From positions 244,962,001 through 245,026,000 of the forward strand of contig OZ024740.1 of NCBI GenBank assembly GCA_964016885.1: DNA of 64,000 nt, given 5' to 3'. Of this stretch, positions 8,853 through 63,712 are shown in pieces. This stretch comes from Eledone cirrhosa. Its lineage: Eukaryota. A program made the position numbers and the translations under genes. Position 1 is the stretch's first letter. Each line of letters starts with the position of its first letter. Under the pieces are notes generated by a model. It worked only from the letters and a program-made list of their open reading frames with translations. It was not told the DNA's origin and ran no database searches.

Positions 8853-8944
<92 letters not shown>

Positions 8945-8967
8945 GGTGGTGGTGGTGGTGGTGGTAA

Positions 8968-13950: not shown

Positions 13951-14105
13951 CAACTAGAAATTGATTTACATATAAATAAACATATGAAACAATCACATTC
14001 GGGTGATATGGCGCATGCCTTTCTGGCATGACACCCATAATTTTGATTTAGATTAAATTCATTTTGATTTATCTTAATTTTGGATATATATATATATATA
14101 TATAT

Positions 14106-14272: not shown

Positions 14273-14329
14273 ATATATATATATATATATATGCATATAT
14301 TGTATTTATTTTCCTAAGTTCTAAATTAT

Positions 14330-14397
<68 letters not shown>

Positions 14398-14404
<7 letters not shown>

Positions 14405-14580
14405 TATTTGGGGAGGGTCATATTGTTATAATATTGCCAGAAATAATAATAAAATACACTCACTGTTTGGTTTGGATTGGTTTTTACTTCTGTATATTTT
14501 ATATCCCTATGGTTAATTTAGCTGGCAATCAATGCTTATCATTGATTGATCAACGGTTAAAAATAAAAATGTTGTAGACA
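14398..14580 (-). mobile_element. solo 3' end (pLTR) of the Naiad-like PLE family
   Basis: Reverse complement is homologous to 23950-24120 (caatatgaccctcccaaatataac terminus) and abuts (TA)n. Confidence 0.8.
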
Positions 14581-14666
14581 TTACAATACAACGGGAAGAA
14601 ACATAATAGTATCATTGATGATGCCACAGGTGTGTGAGGAAAGAACATTGATAAACTATATATATA

Positions 14667-15192: not shown

Positions 15193-15884
<692 letters not shown>

Positions 15885-16260
15885 GTATAAAGCGGCGTTC
15901 TACTATCCTCAATAAAATACACACACACAAAAACACATGCAAATACAAATTCACAAACAAACACACAGTTGCCCACTGCCCTCCTCTACCACATTTATTT
16001 ACTCCCACGGCTTCAACAATAAACATCGAAAGGCGCTCAAAGAGTTACTACTACTTCCTATACATCACCACTATGTTACCCCATTTATACCCACCCTAAC
16101 CTTCACCTGTCCGACATGTTACTACCTCAAACACACCTTCATTGTGTATCTTAATGTTTGATAAATTCAGTGGCCAAATTTTAAAGCAATGCGCTCACTT
16201 CTCTAACACTCACTCTCTTTCTCCGTTTCCCCTTTCTTTCTCTCTCTTTATATATATATA

Positions 16261-17320: not shown

Positions 17321-17330
17321 AATATATATA

Positions 17331-17481
17331 GAAAGGAGTAGGACCGCGACGGCTGAGCTCAAGCCGTTTCGACGGCTAATTCTGGGGTCCTACTCGTTCC
17401 TATTACCCACTCTACTACCCTAAGTATTGAGTACTTTGGTGCGTTATGGTCCACCTGGTTCCTTACCACATTTCCTTCGTT
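17331..17481. mobile_element. short fold-back element (copy 3, internally deleted)
   Basis: Same family; the centre of the palindrome has collapsed. Confidence 0.75.
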
Positions 17482-17735
17482 ATATATATATATATGTATA
17501 TATATCATAAAACATGTCTATAGAATCACAAGATAAAATATATACTATTTCCTCTCCCAATTAGCATAATTAACTATATAAAAAAATCGAATAGACCAGG
17601 CTATAAGAATGAGGCTTCTATGAAGAAATCTCCGACAAATAACCAAAATGAGCCCTTCGCGTCGGTCGTAGCGGAATATTTATCGAATTTTTCGACAGCG
17701 TAATCGCCCAGATACAGTCAACTAAACAGAATTAG

Positions 17736-19828
<2,093 letters not shown>

Positions 19829-21330: not shown

Positions 21331-22202
21331 TTTTTTCAGCTTTTTAATTATTGTTTGTTTGTGTTTGTTGGTTTGTTTTTGTTGTTTTTTTTGTTTTTTT
21401 GGACTACTTGATACTTTAAAATTATAATTTTTAAAGGATTGGGGACATCCAAGGGAATTGAAATCACGAACTAGAAATAGATCTAAGGCGTGCAGATTGT
21501 GCATCGATGAAAAATCAAATATCTTACAGAGGTAACGCAACAATACTTAGCTGAACACGAAAGCCGATTTTTTTCCAAACGCTGTCCCCATGCCTCAAAT
21601 TATGGCTGCTGCTTTTGGTGGCCTTTTTTTTTCTTTTTTTTTTTTGAATCACACTTTATTAATGTTTGTGTTTATTCTGGACGATAATGTATTAACTTCT
21701 CGCTCCAATTAGTGTTTCGTGACTGCCTCAAACAATTCCATTAATACCTGCTATATTGGTGGCTACAACTTCGATTCATACCTAATATATATATATTTGT
21801 TTTGCGAGGTTTTTGATATGAAATCGTGTGTCGAAACAAATATTGTTATACTTGGGGAGAGTCATATTGTAATACTATTACCAGAAATAATAACAGAACA
21901 CACTCACTGTTTGGTTGGTTTTCGCTTCTGTATCTTTTATATCTCCATAGTTAATTCATTTGGTCCGCAATGTTTATCATTATTAAAATACATATATAAT
22001 ATAGATACAAACACATATATATATAGTCTAACAAAGTTCTTTCGTTGCACATCTGCAACATCATCAGTGGGCCTCCTACTTAGACTTACCTATGACACAG
22101 AGTACCTAGACAGCCATGATCTTAGCCGTTTCTGCCCCAGTAGACCCATAAAGGTAGACCCCCCCCCCCCACACACACACACATACACACACCATAACCT
22201 CA

Positions 22203-23605
22203 ATGGCAAAAAAGACTCCCATGGAAAGGTGGATTGGGTGGACCAAAGCCTTACGGACCCCCCAAAACAATGATCAGGTAAGAAAAATGGTCGCGCATGC
22301 AATAGGGGCTAGTATTAAAACTACCCTAAAGGGCCACATATTCAAATTCAACGAAAAGATCTACACCCAAAATGAAAGAGCAGCCATTGGCGTCAGCATA
22401 GCCGGAGACGTTGCCAACCTTTTTATGGTATGGTGGGAAAGGAAACTCAAAGATCTCCTTGATGAGAGCTCCATAGACCTCATGTACTCTCGTTACGTAG
22501 ACGATATTAATATAGTAATAAGGACACCCCACAAGAGAGTACTAACAAATATGAGTTAGAATGTAGCACAATGGAAAGCATCCAGCAGATAGCTAACTCC
22601 ATACACCAGAGTATAATTGTAACTATCGACTACCCTTCCAAACACCCTAACAGTAGGCTACCTGTATTAGACATGAAACTCTGGATTAACACTATAGACG
22701 AGAGGGCCCAAATTCTCCACTCACACTACGCTAAACACATGGCCTCCAAATACCTGATACTCAAAAACTCAGCAATGTCCAATAGTGCTTAGTTTAATAT
22801 TCTGATCGCAGACTTGGTACGAGTGATGAAGAACGTGTCCAGCATGTGCGACCCAACAGAAATGGAAAGACACATCCAACACTTCATCAACCGCATGCAG
22901 TTCTCTGGCTACAACCAAAGAGACAGAGTCAGAGTATACAAAGGAGCCATGGAGAAGTATAAGACCCTCATAGAACTGGACATGAAAGGAATTTGCCCAT
23001 TATACAGGAGCAAATCATGGAATAGCTTAGATAGGGCTAGACATAAGATAGGGAAAGCCACCTCATGGTACGACAACCAGAGATACCAGAGTGTCATGTT
23101 CGTGGACGCTACCTCTGGAGGGAAATTAGCTAACCAGTGTAGAAAGGCCCTGAGAAAGACCCACTTAAAGATTAAAGTGGTAGAAAAGCCAAGAACTACC
23201 ATAAAATCCCTGATCAGCAAATATACCCTTTTAAGAAAACCCACTGTACTAATAGGAAATATGTTATATGTAAAGTAAACCCCCAGCTAAACTGTAAAAC
23301 TAAAAACGTAGTCTATAGCATAAGATGTACAAAGGGTACTTGCAGAAACATGACAACAACATACATAGGTGAGACAGCTCGAAGCATAGGAGAAAGGATA
23401 CATCAACACTGGGGGGAATTAAAAGGACGAAAAAACGATTCAGTACAATACGAACACGCCAGACAACAACATGACGGTAACATAGACAACATAGAAATTA
23501 AAATAATATCTAAACAGAAATGACCCAGCAGGTAGGCAAATCAGAGAGGCAAGCGAAATAAAGCTTAGCAAGCCAAAGCTAAACAGAAAAAAATGAATGG
23601 AATAA
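22203..23605 (+). pseudogene. PLE reverse transcriptase (palm/thumb) + GIY-YIG endonuclease, frameshifted
   Basis: IYTQNERAAIGVSIAGDVANLFM...RYVDD; DYPSKHPNSRLPVLD; MQFSGY; NCKTKNVVYSIRC...YIGETARSIGERIHQH. Several stops and frameshifts. Confidence 0.9.
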
Positions 23606-23915: not shown

Positions 23916-26413
23916 GACTAAATATATGTTTTTATATCTATATTATATCTGTATTTTTGACCGTTGGTCAGTCAATGATAAACATTGAGGACCAAATGAA
24001 TTAACTGTGGAGATATAAAAGATACAGAAGCGAAAACCAACCAAACAGTGAGTGTGTGTGTTCTGTTATTATTTCTGGCAATATTATTACAACAATATGA
24101 CCTTCCCTAAGTATAACAATATATATATATATATATATATAGGAAAAGTAAATAACAACAACAATGAGTACAGTTACGAAAGGTGTTGGGTATTAGGTTC
24201 ACTCTTGAGAGTGGGGTGTGGGGGACGACGTTTATTCCAAGTATTAACAAATGTTTCATTGGTCCGGTGTGTCTAAAAACCGCTATCTGCAATGTGCCAC
24301 GACACTCGATTTTAAGTACAGTTTATGCCAACCAAATTCTCCAAATACTATTTCGGTTTAGATACTACAACGCGTTTGTATTTATAGTTACATGAAAAAT
24401 AACATGAATAATAACAAGAATGAAAGTATAGTGAGGAGGGGGATATTAATATTAGGATAATGGCATGAAATAATAACATGAAAAAAAGTGGTATGAAAAG
24501 ACAATAAGATATAGATTTCTTTCTCAAATAAAGTGAAATTTATTATATATATATATATATATATATGATAAATTTCATTTTATTTGAGAAAGAAAAATAC
24601 CCAACGACAGCTATTAGTGACTCCCAAAGGAAAGGGGAGATAATTTTGAGCATGCTTAGGGAAAGGCAAATTTGGACTATGCAGGCAAGGCACAACTATC
24701 GACATATTTCGGTCTTTGTTGATAGTTCGACATAAACACACACAACAGAGCTGTTCTTTTTCACTTCTTTACCTTCTTCTGACAGATGAGGAGTGTCGGA
24801 AGACTCCTTGTCTTATCTATCAGACAGAGCAGCGCCAGTGAATTAGATGTTGTGTACGTGGTCGTGGAGAGAGATGAGGATACTAGAGACCGACTCTTAA
24901 TTCGCCCGGCTATTAAAATATTATACCTGAACAGTTACTAACAAATTTGAAAATCACAAACAAAACACAACCATATGAAAAATGATGTACACAGCACTGA
25001 ACGATTGAACGTAGGATCAACGTAGAGTTATATATAAACTATATATAACATGTAGTCGGCAATAACACAGTCTAATATTGCAATATATCTACTGGTGTTC
25101 GTTCAAACTTACTTCCTCCACTTTGTACCGAAGCATTTTTTAATTCATTTAATATGTAACGGAATGGAATTTTGATTATTTTTTTAACCATTAAGATATT
25201 CAAATTTATTTAATCTGGTAATTACACTTCGGGGTCTTCGGAATTTCTTCTTGTACAGAAAACATCTATAAATGTCGTCGCTGGATGGAATTAGTGCAAT
25301 ATTGTACACATAAACACACACTGACATATAAACACAAAAATACGGTTAGATTGAGAGTCAGTAGTAATATTAAGATATACATTTAAATTGTTAAATGGAC
25401 ACAAATTAAATTACTCATTCTTTTTCTCTTTGTCTCAAATTTCCCTCAAATCACACTCTGTTGTCTTGAAAGAATGACATTAGAAAATATAATATCTTAG
25501 ATTCATTATATGAACATTTTTGCTAGAACGGGTTTAATCATAGATATGTTTGATCTCGAGTCTAAACAATGACATCATAATTACAATTTTGATGGAACAG
25601 TCCTATGAATTGTGAAGAAAGGATAATCAATTTAGCTTCTTCTCAGAATTTAACGATTTTTCTGTTTCTGAAGATGAAACTCTGTCTTTGGGATGCAAAT
25701 TTTGTTATGGCAAATATATATTCAATCAATGTTTAATCAATTTGGATTTTGAAGCTGTGTCGTTTGGTTTTGCTATCATTAAGCTATCTCTTCATTACGA
25801 GTATGATTATAATTGATTAACATTTTATGTGGTCTCACTACATTAAATATGTTAGCTACCTCTTAACTAAATGTTCTTCACGTAGAAGTTATCGCTGGGA
25901 AATTTTCGTATATCATTAATTCAAATCAAAGTCACTAGATTAAATATGTTTAATAGCAAACATAGTTCAGTAAAGCAGAAATATATGGCTAGCTTTTATG
26001 AACATTTATCAAAGGAAAATTCTTTTCTAAATCGGATTTATATCAGATTCATTACAGAAATATGAGCCCTTAAATCAATAAAGAGAATTTAATGAGGCGC
26101 TGAAACCTACATATCTTCATCAAATTGTGGCGTGTAGTTAATCGATGTGATTTTTCTAGTTATCCTCGAAATTAAGAATCGTAGGGTCTTGAAAACAGCA
26201 GTTCCCGAGGTCTAGTGTTGTTGCTACTTTAGTGTCATTAGCCTCACTCCACCATCTCCTCGATTTGTTTGCAGCTCATCTGCAGTGGACACTCATATGA
26301 GTTCTACTGCAACAGCCATATTAACTTAGCTTCCTTTTTGTACCATCAATCTTATTGTTTTTATTTTACACCCACAACAGGAATTGCATGTCCATACAGA
26401 CCTCACTTGACCA

Positions 26414-26788: not shown

Positions 26789-28830
26789 ATCTTCTTCTTC
26801 TTCTTCTTCTTCTTCTTCTTCTTCTTCTTCTTCTTCTTCTTCTTCTTCTTCTTCTTCTTCTTCGCCCCCTTATTCCTGAGTGGGTAATGAGGGAAGAGTT
26901 CACAAACACTCCTTCCAGCAGGTCCTGTCAGAAGCAACTATCTCTAACAAATCCGACTGGATCCCCAAGTGAAACCAGCCAAGCTCATGGATGTTATGCA
27001 ACCATCTTGCTCGGGGTCTGCCCCTGGGTCTCCTGCCGATTGGTTTTGCCCGTAAATCTGTCCAGCGATTCTTTTCTGAGACGTTCTAACCACATGCCCT
27101 GAGTATCGGAGCTGTGATATCTCAGTTCGGAGAAGTAGCGGCCCTACCTGGAGTGACTCTCCAATCTCCGAGCTTCGCACTCTATCGGGTAACGTTATTT
27201 CAAAGACCCTTTGGAGGAACCCCATTTCGGCCGCTTGTATTCGCGATTGAATTCTTTCGTTCATTACCGAAGATTCATGACCCTAGGTAAGGGTTGGCGC
27301 AAATACCGAATTGAAGATAGTGAGTTTGGCTTTTACACCCACCTCCCTTCTTCTGATTACTGAAGCTGACGCGTTACTGCACCAGCTCCTGCTATTCTTG
27401 CACTAAATTCAGCCTCCTGCTTTCCATCACTCGTGAACACGGACCCGAGATACTTGAACTGCTCTACCTGCTTCAGTGGAACTCCATTCACATGTAGAGT
27501 GCACTATGCAGGCTTCCTTGTGAGGACAAGTGTCTCAGTTTTCGCAACACTGATTTTCATTCCAACCATGCAGCACTCGGCATCAAACCTATCGAGTACA
27601 AGTCGGCATCAAACCTATCGAGTTAAGTAACACCATGTCGTCTGCAAATTCCAGTCGACTGATTTTACACCCGCCAGTCGTGATAACACTTCCAACCCAG
27701 CAGCGCATGTCAATCCTGTTCATATAAGAAAGGAACAGGAGAAGTGACAGTATGCACCCTTGTCGGTGTCCGACTCCCACATTGAATGGTTTCGATTTAT
27801 CCGAATACAAATACTCGGGCATTCGAAAAGAGACATCAGAGCTGCAAGAAGCTGAACATCCCATACTCCTGCATAACATTCCACGACAGGTCCCGAGGGA
27901 AGCGGTCTTATGCCTTTTCAAGGTCGACAAAACAAGAATATACCTCTTGGAAATACTCCCACGATTTCACGAAGATCTTCCGCAGTGTGAATATTTGGTC
28001 GGCTGTGCTGTTCATCCGGTAGCTTGGACTCGACAATCTCCCTGCATTTCTTTGCCAGACACTTAGCATAGACGTTACCGTGGAATTGGAACAATCTCTC
28101 TTGTGTCTCCCTTTTTGAAAATTGGGTTTATCACTTCCGATCGCCATTGCTTCCAGAGATCCAGTCCACACGGCCACACGAGTCAACAAGAGAATACCTT
28201 CTCTATTTAAGGCTTTTAACATCTCGGACCTGATTTGATCTTTCCCAGCGGCTTTGCCACATTTGAGCTCTTTAACTGCTCTTGTGACCTCAGCCTGTGT
28301 GAGATTAGTCACCGCTCCCAGATGTACCTCGTTTACACCCGAAGATTGTGTTGTGATCATTGTGATGTTGTGATCATGTTTAGGAGATCAGCAAAGTATT
28401 CTCTCTACCTCGCGAGTATGCAACTTTCTGAAGAGAGAACCTCAGACGCGTACCTGATAGCAGGTGTGGAAGAAGGCTTCTTATTATGAGGTCGGTGGAT
28501 TGTCTGCCAGAACACTTTCTTTGCTGATCTGAAGTCGGATTCCAGCTTAACTTCAAAGTTCTCCCATGTCTTAACTTTGGACGCCTTTACTGTCTCTGCT
28601 GCGATGCTTCTTGCCTGCTTGTACTGCAAGTGCAAGAAGGAGGACTTATTTCCAAGCCAAGCTTTGTAAGCCTCCGTCTTTGCTCGGATGGAATCTTTGA
28701 TCTCTAGATTGAACCAAGTGGTCTTCCTACCATCCGGTTCCACACCAAGCCTCTTTCGCCCGCAGCAGTTAACAGCTGAACCAGAAACATCTTCAGTTTG
28801 CTCAGGGAGTTCTCTGAATTACGTTGTATC
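26789..28830 (-). mobile_element. decayed RTE-clade LINE (RT region) with (GAA)n tail
   Basis: KCGKAAGKDQIRSEMLKAL; STADQIFTLR..FVDLEKA; GHRQGCILSLLLF..FADD; IQAAEMGFL..QLRYSGHVVR. The (CTT)n at 26789-26863 is the 3' tail. Confidence 0.9.
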
Positions 28831-33120: not shown

Positions 33121-35538
33121 TTCTTCTGGTTTTATAATTTCACATTTCACAAAGTTTTACCAATAGAGAGAGAGTCGGTTTCTAACATAGACACAAGACT
33201 CTCTCATTGGAATTTACACAACATCAACTAGGTAGATATGTATGCATGCATGTGTAGATATGGATGTTATTGTATGTGTGGATGTGGATGTTTTGCGTTG
33301 TATGTGTGCATCAGTACATGTGTATATGCAGTTATTAGATGCACAATTTTTAGAATGTTTTACATATTTTTACTGTTCCATTAATGGATTGTACTTGTAA
33401 TTTCCTAACTAGTTGTGTTCTTTCTGTTCCTGTGAAGCCTAGCTTCTCAAGATTTGTATTGAGGCAGTTACTAACATACCCCAGTGCCCCAATAATCACA
33501 GGCATAAATCTGAAGGTATAATCAGGGTGGAGTATCTGCAGATTTCTCATCAGTTCTGCATAAATATTCTTTTTTTCACTAATCTTTGATATTATATTGG
33601 CATCTGCAGGACAGCTAACTTCCACTACTGTGCATGCCTTCTTTTCCCTGTCCTATATCATTATATCTGGTCTGTTATGCCTGCATTTTATTGGGGTTTT
33701 TACTGGAACATTCCACCAGTACTCTTTCATATTATGTACATGGATGTCTTCCACATTGCTGTAACTTTTAATGTGTTTATTATCGGGGCTATCTTTTTTA
33801 CGAACTGCATTGTACAGTGTTTTGGCCACGACATCATGCCTCATAGGTAGATAGTGCCGCGATGACATCTTTGGACAGCTGCTGATGATATGGGTGATAT
33901 CCTCTATGTTAGTTCTGCAGAGTCTGCACTTGTTATCATATCTAGGTGTTTTGCTTGCATCCCTATCTCTTTTGTGTATCAGGTATTTCGTGTTGATTTC
34001 CTGTTCTTGGATTGGTCCAAGATAGACTACTTTCCTTATTTATATTACTCTCACTCTGGAGCTTCCTGGCAACATATCTATGCATGATTTTTTGCTGATA
34101 AGTATGCAGTTTTTCATCCATGGATTCACTGTGATACTGTTGAGCGACTTCCCTGAATGTGAGTTTTTGATTATCACACAGGGAATATCTCTCGAGCAGT
34201 TCCTTCCCAACTCTCATAATCTTATCTGTTTCATGCAGATAAACTTGCTCGAGAAACGGGCTCCTACGCTTCGAGGTACGTAGATGTTGTCGGAGAGATA
34301 TGATGCGACATTCAAATGCTGTCTGGACTGATGTTAGGCCTCTACCTCCCTGCTTACGTTTCAAGTAAAGGCGGTCTATGTCATTGTTGATGTGGAAGTT
34401 TCCGGTGTTGTTTAGTATTTTTCGAGTTCCAACATCAACTGCTCGGATTTCGTCTATCGTCCAATTGAGTATTCCAAACGTTGGTGTTAGGACAGGCACA
34501 GCAAACACATTGTGAGCCACTGTTTTGTTTTGCGCAGAGAGTTCCGATGACCAGATCTTTCTTAATCGGGTGTAGTATTCCCTGGTTACGCGTTCTTTAT
34601 TACAGATACCATTATAGGATATGTTCTCATCTATCCCCAGGTATCTGTAGCAGTCCTCATCAGATATCGGTGAAACAGTTAAGCCATTGATGACAATGTT
34701 GCTAGATTGGGCTGTTGTTTTTCCCCGCTTTACAGTCATGTATGAGCATTTATATTGGCCAAACTCCATTCCTATATCCTTTGAGAAAGTTGTAACCAGG
34801 TCAAGATTTTTCTTCATCCCATCCATGTTCTTGGCATAGAGTTTCAGATCGTCCACAAAGAAATTATGGGTTAGGTTCGTATTTCTGTCCCCTTGTGAGC
34901 CAATGATGTATCCCTCATATTTCTTGAGCAGAAAGGACAACGGGTTTAATGACAAGATGAATAATATCACAGAGAGACTGTCTCCTTGAAATATGCCCCT
35001 GCAATATTTTATTTTATCAGTGAAAATAGAGTCCTCCCTCTCTGTCTTTAACCTTAGGATAGTAGCCCAAGAAGAAGACAGCCTCTCTATGGCTCTGACA
35101 ATAATGTCTGGGACTTTAGAAAGTTGGAGGGCCTCTATCATCCAAGAGTGGGGAACAGAATCGAAAGCTCTCTTGTAGTCCAGCCAGACTGTAGTCATAT
35201 TCCTCCTAAGTTGTCGCACCTCCGACATCGCAGCTTTGTTGATTAGGAGTTGTTTAGCACATCCCCAAACCCCTTTTTTCCAGCTGCTTGTTTCATCTGT
35301 GATGATGTTATTATTTTCACAGTGATCTTGGAGGAATAGGTTCAGGGAGGCTGTATACATTTTATACATCAGGTTCTGGCATGCAATGGGTCGGTAGATT
35401 TGTGCTAAGTGGGTGTCTTTGTTCTTGGGGACCATTAATGTTTGTGCTAATGTCAACCACTCTGGTATAAGTGTATCTCCCTTAAGAACTTGTTGGTAGA
35501 GGTCAGTAAGATACCTCCGATAGAATATCAGTTTTTTG
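33121..35538 (-). mobile_element. 5'-truncated R4/Dong-like RLE non-LTR retrotransposon inserted in (CATA)n
   Basis: YRPIACQNLMYK; WLDYKRAFDSVPH; GIFQGDSLS; FFVDDLKLY; RLYLKRKQGGRGL; RHDVVA; HNRPDI; PVIIGALG. (TATG)n at both ends. Confidence 0.9.
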
Positions 35539-35602
35539 TATGTATGTATGTATGTATGTATGTATGTATGTATGTATGTATGTATGTATGTATGTATGTA
35601 TG

Positions 35603-36060
35603 TCAAAGGGCAAAGGAGCTCTTAAGAGTCAATGGCCATCCAAAATCACCGGGAGAGATGACCCCTTAGCCTTTGTCAAAGCAGAATTCTAGGAGAAGGA
35701 AAACTCTGATATAACACCTGCAACCCTGATGGTATCCAATGATGTTGACTTGTTCTTCTTTTTGGTAAATATCATCTTGGTTAGGAGAGTGGGACTGGCT
35801 TTGTGCAGTGCCTTTGCTCACTATAAAAGCTTCACGGCACAGGCATTGCTTTATATCTGGAGATCTCTCTGCACTTGTCGTCACATGGTACCATTGTCCC
35901 AGCTCTATGTGTCAATAATTGTCACAAGTGTAGTGTCTGTACCAGAGTTTTCAAGTCGCTGGCTGGACTAAAAAGTCACACGCGTTCAGCGCACCGGTAG
36001 GGGTTCTCCTACATGGATATAAAGTAGTGGCCATACTCGAAAACGAGTTGGCAGCCACCA
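35603..36060 (+). mobile_element. non-autonomous RTE-related short element between (TATG)n tracts
   Basis: ctaggagaaggaaaactctga motif, which I recall from RTE 5' UTRs; homologous to 32575-33106. Confidence 0.5.
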
Positions 36061-38339: not shown

Positions 38340-38681
38340 CATTCTTACAGAGATAGTGTTCTTCTTAATACGTGTGCAGTATCAGTAAAAATAATTTTTG
38401 TACCTCTTGCATAGAGGGTAAACCAGGAATCATTTGCAAATACTGTTCTGTTCCTTTCTTGATCATTCCCAGTCCTCCCACAATCACTGGTATTGTAACG
38501 GCCTTGAGGTGCCACATTTTTTCCGATTTCAATAAGTAGATCTTTATATTTTCTTAGCTTGTCAAATTCTTTTGCCGCGATATTGTGATCACATGGGATG
38601 CTCATATCAATCAATAAACAGACCTTCCTATGTTGGTCTTTTACAATGATATCTGGTCTATTAGCTTTTATGGTCCGGTCA

Positions 38682-38719
<38 letters not shown>

Positions 38720-38813
38720 TGACCGGACCATAAAAGCTAATAGACCAGATATCATTGTAAAATACCAACATAGGAAGGTCTGTTTATTGATTGATATGAG
38801 CATCCCATGTGAT
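38340..38813 (-). mobile_element. R4/Dong-like RLE 3' fragment with a ~95-bp inverted duplication around a (TA)n loop
   Basis: TDRTIKANRPDIIVKD..LIDMSIPCDHNIAAKEFDKLRKYKDL. 38588-38683 is mirrored at 38718-38813. Confidence 0.85.
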
Positions 38814-39535: not shown

Positions 39536-39662
39536 AGAAGGAAATATATATATATATATATATATTTAAATAGAAGAAGGAAAAACATGTATTTTAACCC
39601 ACCTTTTAACTCTGAGGTCCTCACTAACCCCCCCCCCCCCCCCCAGAGTATTCTTCTCCTTA

Positions 39663-40385
39663 TTGGAAAAAAACTTCCCACCAGGCAATAGATACCGCAA
39701 CATAATTAACAAAAACGTAATTAAATTATCCTATTCGACCACACCTAACCTCGCATCACACCTAGCACGTACGAACATTAGGAAAACTAAGGAGGGATTC
39801 GAAGCAATTAAAATGGCAGTTAACCACCAGCAACCGACTACACTAGAAAATGGGCAACATAATAGCATCAATGAGCCATCTAATAATATAGAGGCACCTA
39901 GTGATAATGCGAGTAACCAAACTTCGGGAGGTAAGCTAACTAATCGAACCCGCAGTTGCAATTGTAGGCGGAGTAGTAACTGTCCCCTAAGGGGGGATTG
40001 CCTCACGAAAAACATAGTATATGCATGTGACGTAACCACATACAACTCTACCAAAACATATATAGGAGCAACGTCCAATACATTTAAAACTAGATTTAAC
40101 GCGCATATGTACACATTTAGACACGACAGACATAAGAATGCCACCTCACTGGCGGGATACATCTCCTTCTTAAAAAATAATAGTACCCCATACAAACTTT
40201 TTGGGAGGAAGCTTACTAAATCCACGCCATACCGACCGCAGAGCGGAAGTTGTGACCTGTGTTTACTGGAATGCCATGCCATAATACACTCTAAACTGAA
40301 CCTGCTTAACAGGAAATCGGAAATTTTCTCCTCATGCCAACACAAAATCCTGAGTTCCTTCTTCTATTTTAAACCTAGCACATAG
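39663..40385 (+). pseudogene. PLE C-terminus: RT end, linker and GIY-YIG endonuclease
   Basis: IKLSYSTTPNL; CNCRRSSNCPLRGDCLTKNIVYACDV..YIGATSNTFKTRFNAH..CDLCLLE..LNRKSE..CQH. Confidence 0.9.
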
Positions 40386-46158: not shown

Positions 46159-46895
46159 GACTATATGAGAGAGATGAACACAGATATAAGTATTTAACGA
46201 AGGGTATAAATATGTAATTGTTATTGTTGGATGAGGTAACATGGTTATTAGATGAAATAACATGAATAATAAGAATAAATGTTTTTAGTTTATATATGGT
46301 TTACTTCACGTGAATCAATTAAAAAGTACAGTAAAACAGTTACCAAGAGTGGAGAGGGTTGACAATGTTATTCTGTTGTTAATGTAAAAACAGCGAACGA
46401 CCAGATAAAATTTGTTGGTGGTTAAAGTTTGTTGCAGTCCCTCGTAGTAGTTCTCGTGTTGAGTCTATGACCATAGTGTGTGAGAGAGAGTAACGGTTTG
46501 TATACCTCTGAATGATCTGTAGATGACTGTAGACCAGTGTGGTCTGTTGATAGTGGTGAATCTTTCACATAGCTTGTTCTGTAGTGGGGGTGCTCCGATG
46601 TCTCTGTGTCTAAGGTGGGAAAATATAGGCTTTATATACCTGTCGCTTTCTGCCTCCCACCTTTAGGGGATAGCCCACGCATGAACCTGTTCACTCCAAA
46701 AGGGTGATGACCTAAAATTTGACCTTTAGGTGTCACCCAAGGTTCAAGGCGCGGACAGATTTCACTACAAGTATACATGTGTTCCAATTGCAAAGCACCA
46801 AGTTAGCTAGGTTTCAACCTAGCTAACTTGGTCCTTGCAAATGGAACACATGTATACTTGTATCGGTGTTCATCCCTCTCATATATTCAATTATA
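46152..46895. mobile_element. non-coding element with ~42-bp imperfect terminal inverted repeats and a subterminal ~97-bp palindrome
   Basis: tataattgactatatgagagagatgaacac..tataagtat versus atacttgtatcggtgttcatccctctcatatattcaattata; hairpin at 46766-46862. Confidence 0.55.
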
Positions 46896-46997
46896 TGACA
46901 CGGCTCGGAAAGATTCACTTCTTTGAGCTATTTAATTGTAAAAGACTATTTTGAGTTTCTAACTCAATGTATGATATATATATATATATATATATAT

Positions 46998-47090
46998 ATT
47001 GTTATATTTGCGGAGGGTCCTATTGTTGTATTATTGCCAGAAATAATAATAAAACACACTCACTGTTTGGTTTGGATTGGCTTTCGCTTA
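46998..47090 (-). mobile_element. solo 3' end of the Naiad-like PLE family
   Basis: Matches 14398-14490. Confidence 0.75.
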
Positions 47091-47164
47091 GGGTATATAT
47101 ATTAGGATATATATATATACTATACATACACATACATACATATGCACACACACACATATATATA

Positions 47165-50100
47165 TATAAATATGTGAATATAGACATAGAATATTCGAAA
47201 ATATTCTGTATGTTTATAATAAACATTTTGAAGACCTAATCGCTATAGAATAGAATACGTCACGTATTACAATTAGATTCTCGATAAAAGCAAGGGAAGT
47301 AATCTACGCGTTTCATTCTCGTTAGAAATCATCAGGACTACATATCCAGTGCTTTTATCGAGAATGACACAGCTAGAGACTTATAGAATACTTAGCTGTG
47401 TACAGGAACTGGTTTGAAAGAGCGGTTGCCGGTCCGGCAGAAATTAGAAATTGGAATAAATGCTCTGAAATAGCGATATATATGTGAATATAGACATAGA
47501 ATATTCGAAAATATTCTGTATGTTTATAATAAACATTTTGAAGACCTAATCGCTATAGAATAGAATACGTCACGTATTACAATTAGATTCTCGATAAAAG
47601 CAAGGGAAGTAATCTACGCGTTTCATTCTCGTTAGAAATCATCAGGACTACATATCCAGTGCTTTTATCGAGAATGACACAGCTAGAGACTTATAGAATA
47701 CTTAGCTGTGTACAGGAACTGGTTTGAAAGAGCGGTTGCCGGTCCGGCAGAAATTAGAAATTGGAATAAATGCTCTGAAATAGCGATATATATGTGAATA
47801 TAGACATAGAATATTCGAAAATATTCTGTATGTTTATAATAAACATTTTGAAGACCTAATCGCTATAGAATAGAATACGTCACGTATTACAATTAGATTC
47901 TCGATAAAAGCAAGGGAAGTAATCTACGCGTTTCATTCTCGTTAGAAATCATCAGGACTACATATCCAGTGCTTTTATCGAGAATGACACAGCTAGAGAC
48001 TTATAGAATACTTAGCTGTGTACAGGAACTGGTTTGAAAGAGCGGTTGCCGGTCCGGCAGAAATTAGAAATTGGAATAAATGCTCTGAAATAGCGATATA
48101 TATGTGAATATAGACATAGAATATTCGAAAATATTCTGTATGTTTATAATAAACATTTTGAAGACCTAATCGCTATAGAATAGAATACGTCACGTATTAC
48201 AATTAGATTCTCGATAAAAGCAAGGGAAGTAATCTACGCGTTTCATTCTCGTTAGAAATCATCAGGACTACATATCCAGTGCTTTTATCGAGAATGACAC
48301 AGCTAGAGACTTATAGAATACTTAGCTGTGTACAGGAACTGGTTTGAAAGAGCGGTTGCCGGTCCGGCAGAAATTAGAAATTGGAATAAATGCTCTGAAA
48401 TAGCGATATATATGTGAATATAGACATAGAATATTCGAAAATATTCTGTATGTTTATAATAAACATTTTGAAGACCTAATCGCTATGGAATAGAATACGT
48501 CACGTATTACAATTAGATTCTCGATAAAAGCAAGGGAAGTAATCTACGCGTTTCATTCTCGTTAGAAATCATCAGGACTACATATCCAGTGCTTTTATCG
48601 AGAATGACACAGCTAGAGACTTATAGAATACTTAGCTGTGTACAGGAACTGGTTTGAAAGAGCGGTTGCCGGTCCGGCAGAAATTAGAAATTGGAATAAA
48701 TGCTCTGAAATAGCGATATATATGTGAATATAGACATAGAATATTCGAAAATATTCTGTATGTTTATAATAAACATTTTGAAGACCTAATCGCTATAGAA
48801 TAGAATACGTCACGTATTACAATTAGATTCTCGATAAAAGCAAGGGAAGTAATCTACGCGTTTCATTCTCGTTAGAAATCATCAGGACTACATATCCAGT
48901 GCTTTTATCGAGAATGACACAGCTAGAGACTTATAGAATACTTAGCTGTGTACAGGAACTGGTTTGAAAGAGCGGTTGCCGGTCCGGCAGAAATTAGAAA
49001 TTGGAATAAATGCTCTGAAATAGCGATATATATGTGAATATAGACATAGAATATTCGAAAATATTCTGTATGTTTATAATAAACATTTTGAAGACCTAAT
49101 CGCTATAGAATAGAATACGTCACGTATTACAATTAGATTCTCGATAAAAGCAAGGGAAGTAATCTACGCGTTTCATTCTCGTTAGAAATCATCAGGACTA
49201 CATATCCAGTGCTTTTATCGAGAATGACACAGCTAGAGACTTATAGAATACTTAGCTGTGTACAGGAACTGGTTTGAAAGAGCGGTTGCCGGTCCGGCAG
49301 AAATTAGAAATTGGAATAAATGCTCTGAAATAGCGATATATATGTGAATATAGACATAGAATATTCGAAAATATTCTGTATGTTTATAATAAACATTTTG
49401 AAGACCTAATCGCTATAGAATAGAATACGTCACGTATTACAATTAGATTCTCGATAAAAGCAAGGGAAGTAATCTACGCGTTTCATTCTCGTTAGAAATC
49501 ATCAGGACTACATATCCAGTGCTTTTATCGAGAATGACACAGCTAGAGACTTATAGAATACTTAGCTGTGTACAGGAACTGGTTTGAAAGAGCGGTTGCC
49601 GGTCCGGCAGAAATTAGAAATTGGAATAAATGCTCTGAAATAGCGATATATATGTGAATATAGACATAGAATATTCGAAAATATTCTGTATGTTTATAAT
49701 AAACATTTTGAAGACCTAACGAGAATGAAACGCGTAGATTACTTCCCTTGCTTTTATCGAGAATCTAATTGTAATACGTGACGTATTCTATTCTATAGCG
49801 ATTAGGTCTTCAAAATGTTTATTATAAACATACAGAATATTTTCGAATATTCTATGTCTATATTCACATATATATCGCTATTTCAGAGCATTTATTCCAA
49901 TTTCTAATTTCTGCCGGACCGGCAACCGCTCTTTCAAACCAGTTCCTGTACACAGCTAAGTATTCTATAAGTCTCTAGCTGTGTCATTCTCGATAAAAGC
50001 ACTGGATATGTAGTCCTGATGATTTCTAACGAGAATGAAACGCGTAGATTACTTCCCTTGCTTTTATCGAGAATCTAATTGTAATACGTGACGTATTCTA

Positions 50101-52380
50101 TTCTATAGCGATTAGGTCTTCAAAATGTTTATTATAAACATACAGAATATTTTCGAATATTCTATGTCTATATTCACATATATATCGCTATTTCAGAGCA
50201 TTTATTCCAATTTCTAATTTCTGCCGGACCGGCAACCGCTCTTTCAAACCAGTTCCTGTACACAGCTAAGTATTCTATAAGTCTCTAGCTGTGTCATTCT
50301 CGATAAAAGCACTGGATATGTAGTCCTGATGATTTCTAACGAGAATGAAACGCGTAGATTACTTCCCTTGCTTTTATCGAGAATCTAATTGTAATACGTG
50401 ACGTATTCTATTCTATAGCGATTAGGTCTTCAAAATGTTTATTATAAACATACAGAATATTTTCGAATATTCTATGTCTATATTCACATATATATCGCTA
50501 TTTCAGAGCATTTATTCCAATTTCTAATTTCTGCCGGACCGGCAACCGCTCTTTCAAACCAGTTCCTGTACACAGCTAAGTATTCTATAAGTCTCTAGCT
50601 GTGTCATTCTCGATAAAAGCACTGGATATGTAGTCCTGATGATTTCTAACGAGAATGAAACGCGTAGATTACTTCCCTTGCTTTTATCGAGAATCTAATT
50701 GTAATACGTGACGTATTCTATTCTATAGCGATTAGGTCTTCAAAATGTTTATTATAAACATACAGAATATTTTCGAATATTCTATGTCTATATTCACATA
50801 TATATCGCTATTTCAGAGCATTTATTCCAATTTCTAATTTCTGCCGGACCGGCAACCGCTCTTTCAAACCAGTTCCTGTACACAGCTAAGTATTCTATAA
50901 GTCTCTAGCTGTGTCATTCTCGATAAAAGCACTGGATATGTAGTCCTGATGATTTCTAACGAGAATGAAACGCGTAGATTACTTCCCTTGCTTTTATCGA
51001 GAATCTAATTGTAATACGTGACGTATTCTATTCTATAGCGATTAGGTCTTCAAAATGTTTATTATAAACATACAGAATATTTTCGAATATTCTATGTCTA
51101 TATTCACATATATATCGCTATTTCAGAGCATTTATTCCAATTTCTAATTTCTGCCGGACCGGCAACCGCTCTTTCAAACCAGTTCCTGTACACAGCTAAG
51201 TATTCTATAAGTCTCTAGCTGTGTCATTCTCGATAAAAGCACTGGATATGTAGTCCTGATGATTTCTAACGAGAATGAAACGCGTAGATTACTTCCCTTG
51301 CTTTTATCGAGAATCTAATTGTAATACGTGACGTATTCTATTCTATAGCGATTAGGTCTTCAAAATGTTTATTATAAACATACAGAATATTTTCGAATAT
51401 TCTATGTCTATATTCACATATATATCGCTATTTCAGAGCATTTATTCCAATTTCTAATTTCTGCCGGACCGGCAACCGCTCTTTCAAACCAGTTCCTGTA
51501 CACAGCTAAGTATTCTATAAGTCTCTAGCTGTGTCATTCTCGATAAAAGCACTGGATATGTAGTCCTGATGATTTCTAACGAGAATGAAACGCGTAGATT
51601 ACTTCCCTTGCTTTTATCGAGAATCTAATTGTAATACGTGACGTATTCTATTCTATAGCGATTAGGTCTTCAAAATGTTTATTATAAACATACAGAATAT
51701 TTTCGAATATTCTATGTCTATATTCACATATATATCGCTATTTCAGAGCATTTATTCCAATTTCTAATTTCTGCCGGACCGGCAACCGCTCTTTCAAACC
51801 AGTTCCTGTACACAGCTAAGTATTCTATAAGTCTCTAGCTGTGTCATTCTCGATAAAAGCACTGGATATGTAGTCCTGATGATTTCTAACGAGAATGAAA
51901 CGCGTAGATTACTTCCCTTGCTTTTATCGAGAATCTAATTGTAATACGTGACGTATTCTATTCTATAGCGATTAGGTCTTCAAAATGTTTATTATAAACA
52001 TACAGAATATTTTCGAATATTCTACGTCTATATTCACATATATATCGCTATTTCAGAGCATTTATTCCAATTTCTAATTTCTGCCGGACCGGCAACCGCT
52101 CTTTCAAACCAGTTCCTGTACACAGCTAAGTATTCTATAAGTCTCTAGCTGTGTCATTCTCGATAAAAGCACTGGATATGTAGTCCTGATGATTTCTAAC
52201 GAGAATGAAACGCGTAGATTACTTCCCTTGCTTTTATTGAGAATCTAATTGTAATACGTGACGTATTCTATTCTATAGCGATTAGGTCTTCAAAATGTTT
52301 ATTATAAACATACAGAATATTTTCGAATATTCTATGTCTATATTCACATATATATCGCTATTTCAGAGCATTTATTCCAA
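47165..52380. repeat. 310-bp hammerhead-containing tandem array (retrozyme-like): ~8.2 units on minus, then ~8.6 units on plus
   Basis: tatgtgaata recurs at 47171, 47481 ... 49651. Polarity switches at 49716-49719. gagaatgaaa recurs at 49721, 50031 ... 52201. Confidence 0.97.
49986..50074 (+). ncRNA. type I hammerhead ribozyme (representative of 16 complete copies)
   Basis: Outer helix ATTCTCGATAAAAGCA/TGCTTTTATCGAGAAT; internal loop with GGA/TCC; helix I GTAGTC/GATTAC; CTGATGA at 50016; helix II TTCT-aacg-AGAA; GAAAC-GC-GTA, with predicted cleavage after 50046. Confidence 0.88.
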
Positions 52381-52395
52381 TATATATAAATATAT

Positions 52396-52593
52396 AACGA
52401 AGGAAATGTGGTAAGGAACCAGGTGGACCATAACGCACCAAAGTATTCAATACTTAGAGTAGTAGAGTGGGTAATAGGAACAAGTAAGACCCCGACGGCT
52501 GAGCTCAAGCCGTTTCGACGGCTAATTCTGGACTCAGTCCAGAATTAGCCGTCGAAACGGCTTGAGCTCAGCCGTCGGGGTCTTACTTGTTCC

Positions 52594-52596
<3 letters not shown>
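52396..52596. mobile_element. short fold-back element (copy 4, best preserved)
   Basis: Perfect arms 52474-52534 / 52536-52596 centred on ggact-c-agtcc. Confidence 0.85.
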
Positions 52597-52634
<38 letters not shown>

Positions 52635-57930: not shown

Positions 57931-57933
<3 letters not shown>

Positions 57934-58240
57934 TATGTAATAAACAGCATAAGATAATTATTTCATTTACCAGTGGTTTCTTGAAAGCAAACAAAATTTG
58001 CTTTCAGTCATCAGAATGAAAAAATCCTGGTGTATTTATTGACAGTGGTTTTTAAAATCCACTGTCAATAAATACACCAGGATTTTTCATTCTGATGACT
58101 GAAAGCAAATTTTGTTTGCTTTCAAGAAACCACTGGTAAATGAAATAATTATCTTATCTTGTTTATTACATAACTAATAAGCTCTGTAACCTACATTGAG
58201 CACTCTTTTTTCCTGGACCTTTCCGTCGGAATTACTTCAC

Positions 58241-58304: not shown

Positions 58305-60472
58305 TCCTTCATCAGTGATCTTCCAACCGTCATTGGTATTTCTTCGCATTAAAGATCATATACCTCTGGTTGGTCCGAGCAATAACTAAAGAATGTTAAA
58401 GTGAGCGAGACATGTAAACAAATAGAGATGGTAATGCAACAGAAAGAGAGGAAGAGGAGAAACAAGTCCGTGATATCTGGTTAAGATTCAGTCATGGTAG
58501 TGAATATGATATGACAAGATTCAATATTCATATACCTTAAGATTGAGACAAGAAAAAATTTACATATAATACAGAGGGTGCGTGTGAGAAAGCTTAAAAA
58601 TACATATTAGCAATTTACATAACTGTTAGAGATTCAAATAATTTAAATTATTGAAGAAAGAAGAAAGAAAGAAGAAAGACAGAGAGAAACAGATGAGGAA
58701 AAAATATAGTTACTAGAAGTATAGAAAGCAAAAGAGAATTGATCAAAGATAGAGAGACAAAAAGGAATAATTTTTATAGCATAAAGCTTAGATAAATACA
58801 TGAATATACATTTGGTCATAGCTTTGTGAAAGAGTAAACTCGAATCTTTGAATTATCTAGAAGTATCTATTAATCTAAATATTAAATATATCTGGGTGTA
58901 ATTATATGAGGGTTTAATTTCGAGTCCATAGTTAACTAGAAATATACTAACAATTAATTATATACACTATATATATCCAAACGTATCCGGCTGACCGTTA
59001 AATTTCGAATTCTTTATGTTAGTTCAGAATAATGAATTAATCTAAAGGTATAATATTTCAGGCTATACAAGTTTATAAATATCTATATTAATATTAAAGT
59101 TTACTAAGATATTTAATTTATAAAATCATATTTAAAGTATTTGCAAACATGAGAAAGAAACTTAGTATGTTCATCTACACGAAGGTAATCCATATTAAAT
59201 TATATTATCTAATATTATTTTCCTATATTAAAATAATTCTCATTATATAATTTAGAAAATAATTAGTTATAACTTTAAAAATTTTAAATTAACAATTAGA
59301 ATGCCATAAAATATCTAAAAGCCTTATAATTTAACTTAAAAAAGTTATTATTAAATTAGATATATGCATTTGTCTAAATATATACAAAGAGTATATTGTC
59401 TAAAGTTCAAGACGATATTAGTCAGTTATACATAACATAATATAATATAATATAATAAATAAGTTACTGTTAATATTGTTAAAATTAAGGTTTTAGATCA
59501 ATTATTATATTAGGATCATGTAATATATATATACTATAAACATTTCATGAATCATAAGGATACGAACCAGATTCAAAATAAATAAGTAAATTGTTTGCGA
59601 TCATATAAGTGCCAAATATTTAAGCTATATAATTTTAAAATACAAGAACATTTTTAAGGATCTATATTGTAGTATAATATCATATTTAAAGTGTCTGCAA
59701 ACATGGGAAAGAGAAAACTTAAGATTTTCATCGACCCGAAGGTAACCCGAATTTAATTAAATTTAAAAAATAATAATCGTTATATAATTTAGAAAATATT
59801 TAACAATTATAACACTAGAATGTCCTTAAGTATCTAAAGTACTTATAAATGTAGCTAGAAGCCTGTTATTGTTATAAAAATGTTCTTGTATTTTAAAATT
59901 ATATAGCTTAAATATTTGGCACTTTTATGATCGCAAACAATTTATTTATTTATTTTGAATCTGGTTTGTATCCTTATGATTCATGAAATTTTTTATTGTA
60001 TATATGTATTACATGATCCTAATATAATAATTGATCTAAAACCTTAATTTTAACAATATTAACAGTAACTTATTTATTATATTATATTATATTATGTTAT
60101 GTATAACTGACTAATATCGTCTTGAACTTTAGACAATATACTCTTTGTATATATTTAGACAAATGCATATATCTAATTTAATAATAACTTTTTTAAGTTA
60201 AATTATAAGGCTTTTAGATATTTTATGGCATTCTAATTGTTAATTTTAAATTTTTTAAGTTATAACTAATTATTTTCTAAATTATATAATGAGAATTATT
60301 TTAATATAGGAAAATAATATAAGATAATATAATTTAATATGGATTACCTTCGTGTAGATGAACATACTAAGTTTCTTTCCCATGTTTGCAAATACTTTAA
60401 ATATGATTTTATAAATTAAATATGTTAGTATACTTTAATATTAATATAGATATTTATAAACTTGTATAGCAT
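58297..60472. mobile_element. very AT-rich non-coding two-armed insertion
   Basis: 59062-59656 is mirrored at 59875-60470. The left end is homologous to 63838-63915; (TA)n at both ends. Confidence 0.7.
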
Positions 60473-60482
60473 ATTATATATG

Positions 60483-60635
<153 letters not shown>

Positions 60636-62027
60636 TAAAATAACAGATTAAAGTTTAAGCAAAGAATCGCTGCTTTCACCCTTAACGGGATCTTCTGAAA
60701 CTAACAAAGTCAATCTGTAAACGCAGAACTGGATATTTCAAAAAACGTTGCAACCGGAGGAAGACAGGAAGACGATATTTTGGTTCATGGTGACGTTCGC
60801 TGGCAAAGAACGGGAAAAAACGAATAATACGTCATTAATAGGAGCGGTGAAAAACAATTACGTGCAAGGACAGAACCACGTTTATGGTATAAAAGAGGTC
60901 GTAGACTAATGTTCTCTAAGTGGTGCATAGAGACGTTTTCTGGCAATGAACGAAAAAACGAAGATAATAAGTCATATGTGGAGCGTGGAGAACAATAGCA
61001 CGCAAAGACAAAACCACGTAAATGGTATAGCAGAAGTCGTAGACTAAAATTCTAACTAGGAGACCGAATGAATCTCCGCTACAGAGTTAAGAACAAAGTA
61101 AATAAATACAATACAGAAGTAATAGGAACAAATAAATACATACACGCAAACAGATACGTACATACACAAGCATACGCAAAACCTTACCATAGGTATACAA
61201 AACCACGCACATATAAATATGTGTATGTGTGTATGCTTGTGTACAAATAAATAAATAATTATATAAACGTATATAAGTAAATAAATACGTATATAACAAT
61301 CGCACACACATACCTACAAATAAATACATGAAGGTTCGGAGACGTAAGTCAACTAAAACAAGAAGTACACATATACACACACCCACCATACGTACGAACC
61401 TGCATACTCACGCAGACGCAAAACTCCCATATACACATAACCAAGCCCTAAATACCAGAATATGTAAAAATTATACGCCAAAACAGTCAAATATACGTAC
61501 GAGAAGGTATACATACCTTCACAAAACATACGGGTAATATATACTTACCTATGCAAAAAGTAAAGGAATAAACAAAACATATACTTAGCTCCCACATCAA
61601 GACGTAAATATCCACGTATAGATCGTGCTATCCGTTAGGGTATAACGTAGGGCTGTAATACAGGAAAGTTTTGTGCAATTTATGTTTACAAGCCGAAATT
61701 GCCTCAGATTTTTTGTTTAAGATGTGGTCTGTGGCGTAGAGTATTTCCAGGGCCTCGGCGGCGCAGAGGTCACATGGTCTTTTATTTCCGTTATACGATC
61801 TAACCCTAGCTAGGATCTCCCAGTGTAACTTATATTGGGTGTGGTTGTCTTTTAGACTCCAGATATAAGCTGAAAGTGACGTCATATTCCTTCTTAGAGG
61901 GTAACGAAAAGAATGGGTATGCATGTAAAGACGCTGCTTGAAACTATTGGCGGTTAACCCTATGTAGGCCCTACGGGACGTGGGTGTTACAACCTTACAT
62001 TTGTAGACAATGTTACTAGAGAGGCAT

Positions 62028-62489
62028 AGCCCTGTAGTTAGTACTAACTGTAATTGTAGGAATCGGGCTGATTGTCCCCTATCCGGGAAATGCCTCTCTA
62101 GTAACATTGTCTACAAATGTAAGGTTGTAACACCCACGTCCCGTAGGGCCTACATAGGGTTAACCGCCAATAGTTTCAAGCAGCGTCTTTACATGCATAC
62201 CCATTCTTTTCGTTACCCTCTAAGAAGGAATATGACGTCACTTTCAGCTTATATCTGGAGTCTAAAAGACAACCACACCCAATATAAGTTACACTGGGAG
62301 ATCCTAGCTAGGGTTAGATCGTATAACGGAAATAAAAGACCATGTGACCTCTGCGCCGCTGAGGCCCTGGAAATACTCTACGCCACAGACCACATCTTAA
62401 ACAAAAAATCTGAGGCAATTTCGGCTTGTAAACATAAATTGCACAAAACTTTCCTGTATTACAACCCTACGTTATACCCTAACGGATAG
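62028..62489 (+). pseudogene. 5'-truncated but uninterrupted PLE GIY-YIG endonuclease (mirror copy 61628-62027 on minus)
   Basis: NCNCRNRADCPLSGKCLSSNIVYKCKV..YIGLTANSFKQRLYMH..TSLSAYIWSLK..CDLCAAE..LNKKSE..CKH. Confidence 0.9.
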
Positions 62490-63415
62490 CACGATCTATA
62501 CGTGGATATTTACGTCTTGATGTGGGAGCTAAGTATATGTTTTGTTTATTCCTTTACTTATTTGCATAGGTAAGTATATATTACCCGTATGTTTTGTGAA
62601 GGTATGTATACCTTCTCGTACGTATATTTGACTGTTTTGGCGTATAATTTTTACATATTCTGGTATTTAGGGCTTGGTTATGTGTATATGGGAGTTTTGC
62701 GTCTGCGTGAGTATGCAGGTTCGTACGTATGGTGGGTGTGTGTATATGTGTACTTCTTGTTTTAGTTGACTTACGTCTCCGAACCTTCATGTATTTATTT
62801 GTAGGTATGTGTGTGCGATTGTTATATACGTATTTATTTACTTATATACGTTTATATAATTATTTATTTATTTGTACACAAGCATACACACATACACATA
62901 TTTATATGTGCGTGATTGTGTATACCTATGGTAAGGTTTTGCGTATGCTTGTGTATGTACGTATCTGTTTGCGTGTATGTATTTATTTGTTCCTATTACT
63001 TCTGTATTGTATTTATTTACTTTGTTCTTAACTCTGTAGCGGAGATTCATTCGGTCTCCTAGTTAGAATTTTAGTCTACGACTTCTGCTATACCATTTAC
63101 GTGGTTTTGTCTTTGCATGCTATTGTTCTCTACGCTCCACATATGACTTATTATCTTCGTTTTTTCGTTCATTGCCAGAGAACGTCTCTATGCACCACTT
63201 AGAGAACATTAGTCTACGACCTCTTTTATACCATAAACGTGGTTCTGTCCTTGCACGTAATTGTTTTTCACCGCTCCTATTAATGACGTATTATTCGTTT
63301 TTTCCCGTTCTTTGCCAGCGAACGTCACCATGAACCAAAGTATCGTCTTCCTGTCTTCCTCCGGTTGCAACGTTTTTTGAAATATCCAGTTCTGCGTTTA
63401 CAGATTGACTTTGTT

Positions 63416-63466
63416 AGTTTCAGAAGATCCCGTTAAGGGTGAAAGCAGCGATTGTTTGCTTAAACT
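63416..63466 (+). ncRNA. hammerhead-like motif with CAGAAGA core (also 60652-60702 on minus and 45958-46008)
   Basis: AGTTT-CAGAAGA-TCCC-gttaa-GGGT-GAAAGCA..TGCTT-AAACT, with outer helix ACAGATTGA/TTAATCTGT. Confidence 0.6.
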
Positions 63467-63575
63467 TTAATCTGTTATTTTAATAAATATTTGCTCTTCG
63501 GTTCTTATATATTTGATATATATTTTCCTTATCGAGCCCTCTCTGGATTTTAGTCTTCAATTTTATTATTATTAC

Positions 63576-63712
<137 letters not shown>

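Follow-up and report, generated by a model that had tools for sequence, protein, structure and literature searches.

How does a tandem array of a short non-coding repeat come to change strand in its middle? The question is raised by a 310-nt unit present in 8.2 copies on the minus strand followed by 8.6 copies on the plus strand in the window analysed here, a stretch of 64,000 nucleotides from the genome of Eledone cirrhosa. The first-pass annotation, made from the sequence alone, had proposed that two cDNAs were primed from opposite strands of one (TA)n target and joined by microhomology, as in L1 twin priming but on a repetitive or circular template. Our analysis supports this scheme with the exception of the L1 analogy, which points to the wrong family: three features, namely the lack of poly(A), the fixed position of both start sites and a tail of about 30 nt at one side only, agree with insertions of Penelope-like elements (PLEs). 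The genome holds about 1,300 insertions of this hammerhead-bearing 310-nt repeat, the window array among them, and we propose, with a probability of about 0.72, that a PLE reverse transcriptase-endonuclease acts on both strands of (TA)n and makes two cDNAs from one RNA, probably a monomer circle.

Structure of the Window Array

Unit positions are numbered from the base that follows the predicted ribozyme cut (window position 50047). The left arm (47170-49719; ribozyme sense on the minus strand; 2,550 nt with one mismatch to the unit) extends from unit position 66 at its 5' end to position 135 at its outer 3' end, hereafter the short or "A" end. The right arm (49716-52381; plus strand; 2,666 nt, two mismatches) extends from position 290 to an outer 3' end at position 165, the tailed or "B" end, and a 30-nt tail (unit 136-165; 52352-52381, plus strand) is present at this right outer end only. 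The ribozyme-sense strands point outward, as the first-pass annotation had noticed, with the 3' end of each arm outermost, and the right arm does end at CCAAT; the left arm had been said to end at ATATAT, of which the exact match to the unit reaches only ATAT.

The two arms meet 5' to 5' at a 4-nt microhomology (49716-49719), and the bases that they have in common are exactly CTAA, as had been claimed. Its assignment to helix II of the ribozyme is correct for the right arm, in which CTAA (unit 290-293) comprises the last two stem bases and the first two loop bases of that helix, and incorrect for the left arm, in which it corresponds to unit 66-69, outside the ribozyme. A random junction of the unit with its own reverse complement has a 2.2% chance of sharing at least four bases. 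The 82 nt that follow (49720-49801, plus strand) have no inverted partner and make up the loop of the quasi-palindrome; they open with a hammerhead broken off inside helix II, without the CUGAUGA core. The strand switch in the window array is confirmed. A 14-bp direct repeat, likely a target-site duplication, bounds the array on the plus strand (47160-47173 and 52380-52393), the last four bases of its left copy and the first two of its right copy also being part of the unit. This word holds an interruption of the TA run and occurs three times in the window, against 989 14-mers at most one mismatch away from pure (AT)7. In a paralogue of the flanking element (15237-15478), the place where the array is inserted is occupied by no more than a short TA tract. 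The array lies between two other repeat fragments (46996-47089 and 52386-52634), the right one being itself a hairpin element of asymmetric form in which the centre of the hairpin differs among paralogues, and paralogues of the flanking fragments are found in the window at 14060-14600, 15200-15860, and 17230-17520.

The 310-nt Unit and its Hammerhead

The unit is tandemly repeated, non-coding and poor in GC (33-35%), and no open frame of at least 120 codons was found in the array. Lacking a reverse transcriptase/GIY-YIG ORF, it can only be non-autonomous. Each unit carries one minimal type I hammerhead, the first complete copy of which in the right arm is at 50010-50052 (plus strand; predicted cut at 50046/50047). 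As read from the motif, its parts are a 6-bp helix I, CUGAUGA, a 4-bp helix II, GAAA, and a palindromic mini helix III. Minimal hammerheads with such a helix III are described as working in dimers (PMC4209133), and a dimer fold of the unit hammerhead pairs the helix III strands. No match in the unit reached the Rfam gathering level, Hammerhead_HH9 scoring 15.8 of 52 bits (E 0.5), below threshold, and the usual G10.1-C11.1 pair is absent. None of 31 array-fixed variants falls on any of the 14 positions that make up the core and helix III (1.4 expected, a weak deficit when taken alone), and those within the ribozyme affect N7, loop II or helix I, or give A-U in place of the basal U-U of helix II. 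By its size, GC content and layout, the unit fits a non-LTR retrozyme.

Other minimal hammerhead families occur in the genome (L113 upstream of 4729; L031-L130; further loci), with the same T-stem-loop-stem-T helix II and palindromic mini helix III; both helices differ from those of the unit. Words of the unit are also found in 16 public studies under 17 organism labels, for which related hosts, environmental DNA, and transfer are indistinguishable. Unit depth is very high in runs X3 and X4, many variants occur at lower depth in X20, and one 340-base self-closing contig is found in X2, X6, and X11, a contig being unable to tell a circle from a tandem array.

Layout of the Family across the Genome

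Across the 3.0-Gb genome, 4,198 exact copies of the 38-base hammerhead are present; of the 10 first-listed arrays bearing this exact pattern, 9 switch from minus to plus. All 50 loci listed on C1:1-86.3 Mb were then read one by one: 39 are simple inversions, 2 are complex, 7 are single-armed, 1 runs into N, and 1 has a second arm of 11 nt, recognized by eye. Inversion therefore concerns 41-42 of the 49 readable loci (about 85%), and every inversion in this sample is (-)(+), joined 5' to 5' with its 3' ends outward. Two head-to-head arms are thus the usual layout of the 310-nt repeat family. The first-pass annotation, which had proposed to tabulate other arrays, had left room for these never being inverted; this is excluded, since nearly all of them are.

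The flanks of the arrays are AT-rich or (TA)n. The duplication measures 14 bp, longer than 4 bp, both at the window array and at L032; it is readable at only a few loci, because most flanks are pure (TA)n, in which automatic duplication calling is unreliable. At L031, L032, L047, and L170, each flank of the insertion contains several repeats of interrupted TA motifs, which looks as if the target had been copied repeatedly or had slipped. The single-armed arrays in (TA)n (L033, L056, L058, L066, L069, L073, and L078) have a short end in six cases and a tailed end in one. The array at G000:C1:97461504-97476482 (L168, L169) is 15 kb long, with about 45 copies in one arm and 3 in the other.

Outer Ends of the Arrays

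The outer ends cluster at two places in the unit, at about 130-139 (short) and 163-170 (tailed), end calls below 128 arising where the exact match is cut short by variants specific to one array. One short and one tailed end were found in 40/40 sequenced inverted arrays of our first set, which includes the window array. We also compiled end lists over 218 Mb (100 short and 95 tailed ends) and paired neighbours within 20 kb, which placed 126 of the 195 ends in pairs. All 63 pairs of (-)(+) neighbours combine a short with a tailed end, with no short+short and no tailed+tailed pair; this set overlaps with the 40 arrays. A further 37 arrays were selected as short+tailed (except L170) and so add no weight to this count. 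Genome-wide, the two classes are nearly equal in number, with 1,301 tailed and 1,240 short ends.

Junctions and Arm Lengths

Junctions were analysed in 77 arrays, that is, the first 40 and the 37 further ones. This set excludes L041 and L064, which are complex, nine loci without a called second arm, L134, which contains an extra fragment, and L168/L169, two stretches of one 15-kb array; revised calls at L034, L053, L067, and L156 depend on the anchor. All 77 junctions differ from one another, indicating that the palindrome forms anew at each insertion, and a shared palindromic master is rejected on the same count. Microhomology is present at 46 junctions, 10 are blunt, and 21 contain inserted bases. 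Among the 56 without insertion, 36 share at least two bases (null expectation, 18%) and 13 share at least four (2.2%). Complex junctions include those with short templated fillers (L077 and L052) and one with 272 nt of unrelated filler (L054), and at L041 an identical junction is present twice.

The positions of the junctions are spread across the whole unit (chi-square, p 0.51) and are close to random, helix II included. A role for this helix, which the first-pass annotation stressed, is not borne out, as 5 of 154 junction ends fall within it against 7.0 expected, and we reject it as a junction hotspot. An apparent depletion over the whole ribozyme in the first set (5/80 ends, 13.7 expected) was not replicated in the second (11/74, 12.7 expected), and we do not claim it from the pooled value (16/154, p 0.02). 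Junctions do not pile up at the cleavage site (2/154 ends, 5.5 expected). The similar length of the two arms, stressed along with helix II, is true of the window array (2,550 and 2,666 nt), which is among the 3 most even of the 77; across these the median ratio is 1.76, and equal arms are rejected as a family rule. Both details are thus incidental. The longer arm is the short-ended one in 35 arrays and the tailed one in 42. The correlation between the lengths of the two arms is weak (rho 0.27, p 0.019), with a non-significant 0.16 in the second set.

A Probable Single Template per Insertion and Alternative Explanations

Variants fixed throughout an array provided a further source of evidence. 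In 55 arrays whose arms each contain two or more copies, 21 fixed haplotypes were distinguished, 15 of which were seen once, and the two arms carry an identical fixed haplotype in 52 arrays, compared with a mean of 9.5 and a maximum of 17 after shuffling. A discordance at L137 was discarded as a threshold artefact. At L141, haplotype X occupies the two outermost copies of both arms and haplotype Y the inside, and the X/Y switch is offset between the arms by 35 nt, the exact distance between the two ends. L080 has one mirrored variant at a 26-nt offset, and each of its arms overreaches the other at one end; this variant might alternatively be due to conversion, the two arms being nearly even. 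A simple monomer circle does not explain either array, for which a multimer of heterogeneous units or a joint switch of template is required.

The best surviving alternative to two primed cDNAs, which we nevertheless consider unlikely, is that one cDNA (or an antisense template) folds back on itself at its 3' end and is copied from there, the endonuclease then resolving the ends at the tail boundaries. Self-priming has been proposed for rotifer Penelope inversions (PMC3846280) and endonuclease resolution as an explanation of the tail (PMC8557442). Such a process accounts for the shared haplotype and for microhomology at junctions, and also for L141, whose short arm could have copied the outer 3 copies of the long one. 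However, either arm may be the longer (35 vs. 42), yet the end classes are always complementary, and the overreaching arms of L080 imply that neither is a copy of the other in mirrored register. There is also no hairpin-like excess, the distance between the 5' ends being 15 nt or less in 7 of 77 arrays against 7.7 expected, and among 111 non-fixed variant calls in the 55 arrays only those of L080 and L141 are mirrored.

L067 is truly discordant, four outer copies of one arm differing from the other arm. It needs two templates or a later conversion and counts against a single-template model. Its arms start with different haplotypes, as would be expected if each enzyme subunit primed on its own RNA molecule, both molecules originating at a single source locus or in a cell dominated by one haplotype. 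Such dual priming has been proposed for L1 (PMC2837659) and, because arrays are internally uniform, two molecules from one source would look identical. It gives no reason, however, for the strict short+tailed rule or for the in-register switch of L141, and, given some 1,300 loci and no fewer than 21 haplotypes, one would expect discordance in more than 1 of 55 arrays unless each cell were dominated by a single source; we regard it as a still less likely explanation than fold-back.

A short inverted insertion of PLE type might also come first, its arms then growing locally by unequal crossover or slippage, in line with the local amplification after insertion proposed for retrozyme arrays (bioRxiv 10.64898/2026.07.22.740005). 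Block duplications in L050, L053, and L054 indicate that some arms did change length after insertion. As a general explanation, local growth is slightly less probable again: the 766 copies contain 104 singletons and 13 variants at intermediate frequency, a star-like rather than stepwise pattern, and junctions reach unit 171-310, a region accessible to a sub-unit arm only by crossing the cleavage site. A total of 31 distinct variants are fixed through whole arrays, across up to 28 copies, and this, together with the scarcity of block duplications, suggests that arrays went through a bottleneck of one copy and were then synthesized in one long run, as from a monomer circle. Finally, an assembly or library artefact (fold-back chimeric reads) is highly improbable in spite of the window junction being spanned by no contig of four public runs (X1, X2, X3, and X11), which is uninformative for a single-locus junction, since the flanks are not mirrored, the 14-bp direct repeat bounds the array, polarity is always 5' to 5' with complementary ends at 63/63 loci, and the family's outer ends followed by TA recur in public contigs of X3 and X4 (possibly from the assembly's own sample); strand-change joints on the unit are not listed in the public contigs.

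A Coding Element with the Same Layout

The window also contains a 5'-truncated copy of a young coding element (60628-63590) with the same head-to-head layout, its short end on the left and a tail of about 90 nt on the right. This element is abundant and has a 713-codon frame, intact elsewhere (e.g., in L113). From its reverse transcriptase and GIY-YIG motifs, recognized by eye, and from its layout, we take it to be a Neptune-like PLE. The frame gave no match to Pfam or PDB; it has 97 unnamed homologues, many with PF26215. A (-)(+) junction was found in 12 of 21 loci of the element, and where both ends are intact they are short+tailed in 9 of 10 cases, L122 having two tailed ends. The tail is about 90 nt long in this element. 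A blastn comparison of the unit with one copy of the coding PLE and with the remainder of the window showed no similarity, and a relaxed hammerhead pattern returned no autonomous partner. The coding PLE therefore indicates the type of machinery and not the partner itself.

Among the retroelement pieces of the window (22158-23278, 39570-40385, 33963-35621, and 27589-28818) are reverse transcriptase fragments (RVT_1, E 2.7e-5 and 1.6e-22) and, by eye, a second GIY-YIG-like frame. Many other fold-back elements are found, at 59049-60478, 17911-18672, 16260-17320, 57931-58175, 38588-38813, 52474-52596, 46766-46862, 24516-24595, and 15275-15390. Most of them touch (TA)n, and they probably reflect the same insertion route acting on other families. 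A 6.8-kb CAC-type array (862-7631) and a GTG-type array (8069-8965) have opposite polarity and face each other; they lie about 440 bases apart with other sequence between them and do not form a direct junction.

Proposed Mechanism of Insertion

The preferred reading, synthesis of both arms by a PLE enzyme from one RNA, can be detailed as follows. Transcripts of an array would self-cleave and circularise. A PLE protein, probably a dimer, would bind the stretch of the unit between about 135 and 165, and staggered nicks in the (TA)n target would account for the 14-bp duplication. Each nick would prime at one of two adjacent start sites on one RNA, and each polymerase would circle the template a variable number of times, until the cDNAs join at their 3' ends by 1-6 bases in common or by a short filler; second-strand synthesis would then finish the palindrome. 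Double priming of the PLE type is, in our view, the firmest part of this scheme and very probable. That the usual template is a circular monomer is likely, with less assurance, and the cleavage of the transcripts and the partner enzyme are presumed as well.

A broader proposal, for and against which we see about even odds, is that PLE insertion is obligate twin priming, in which the subunits of the dimer each take one of the two start sites that bound the tail of a single RNA; on a circle made by the ribozyme, both would go round repeatedly and yield multi-kilobase palindromic arrays in one step. If true, it would explain together the inverted pLTR and the one-sided tail, and obligate twin priming on a circle would provide evidence, from genome sequence, that an animal circular RNA undergoes rolling-circle reverse transcription. 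How PLEs make tandem or inverted insertions and the tail has been called undefined (PMC8557442), and how retrozymes move, unresolved (bioRxiv 10.64898/2026.07.22.740005). In this respect, a natural experiment is provided by young insertions, about 1,300 in number, of a unit that is short, uniform and marked by haplotypes, and the strict rule that they follow (one short end, one tailed end, one template) is directly testable with a PLE protein and a 310-nt circle. The genome has also gained roughly a thousand multi-kb near-perfect palindromes, which may be a source of dsRNA or instability.

Comparison with Known Systems

Animal non-LTR retrozymes are described as tandem arrays of a 150-450-bp non-coding unit of low GC content, with a type I hammerhead in each unit and a duplication longer than 4 bp, and their dependence on PLEs has been proposed (PMC7229834; bioRxiv 10.64898/2026.07.22.740005). 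In the texts available to us these arrays are not said to be inverted, the word "inverted" appearing 0 times in that of PMC7229834 and in one reference title in that of the 2026 preprint. The post-insertion amplification set out in the same preprint text also contrasts with the arrays described here, which look as if born long and two-armed, with fixed PLE-type ends. Retrozymes are here tied to PLE machinery through insertion anatomy, rather than through distribution or ribozyme phylogeny.

The window array resembles the product of L1 twin priming in having two inverted pieces inside one duplication and microhomology at the junction. Inversion affects a minority of L1 insertions, whereas it is the default for 310-nt arrays, which further differ from L1 by the absence of poly(A), by two fixed start sites, and by arms that repeat one unit. 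In L1, cDNAs from opposite strands at one target give a 5'-to-5' microhomology junction and a target-site duplication; initial priming on poly(A) is followed by a second priming at an internal site that varies, with two non-overlapping pieces as a result (as outlined in PMC2837659).

Closer similarities are found with PLEs. Their insertion units, as described in PMC3846280 and PMC8557442, combine a head-to-head inverted copy, truncated at its 5' end, with a tail of 30-40 bp that is often confined to one end, and they lie in (TA)n targets, with duplications of 8-10 bp in the rotifer. Compared with these accounts, the 310-nt family differs in that its arms are multi-copy non-coding arrays, that about 85% of its loci are inverted, and that the pairing of a short with a tailed end has no exception in 63 pairs. 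In vitro, the anole Poseidon protein, a predicted dimer, nicks and extends both strands of an AT-rich target, and two adjacent internal start sites, downstream of a hammerhead, bound its tail (PMC11167929). That assay used a linear template and, as reported there, showed no difference in start site between strands. The main text of the anole work leaves the two sites unlinked to the ends of one inverted insertion, whereas the genomic rule found here couples them. In the main texts of the open literature, we found neither inverted retrozyme arrays nor twin priming as the PLE default, and part of the end rule may already be in supplements or in the PLE reviews of 2005-2006. What seems to be new here is the PLE insertion anatomy on retrozyme arrays and the unusual strictness of the end rule.
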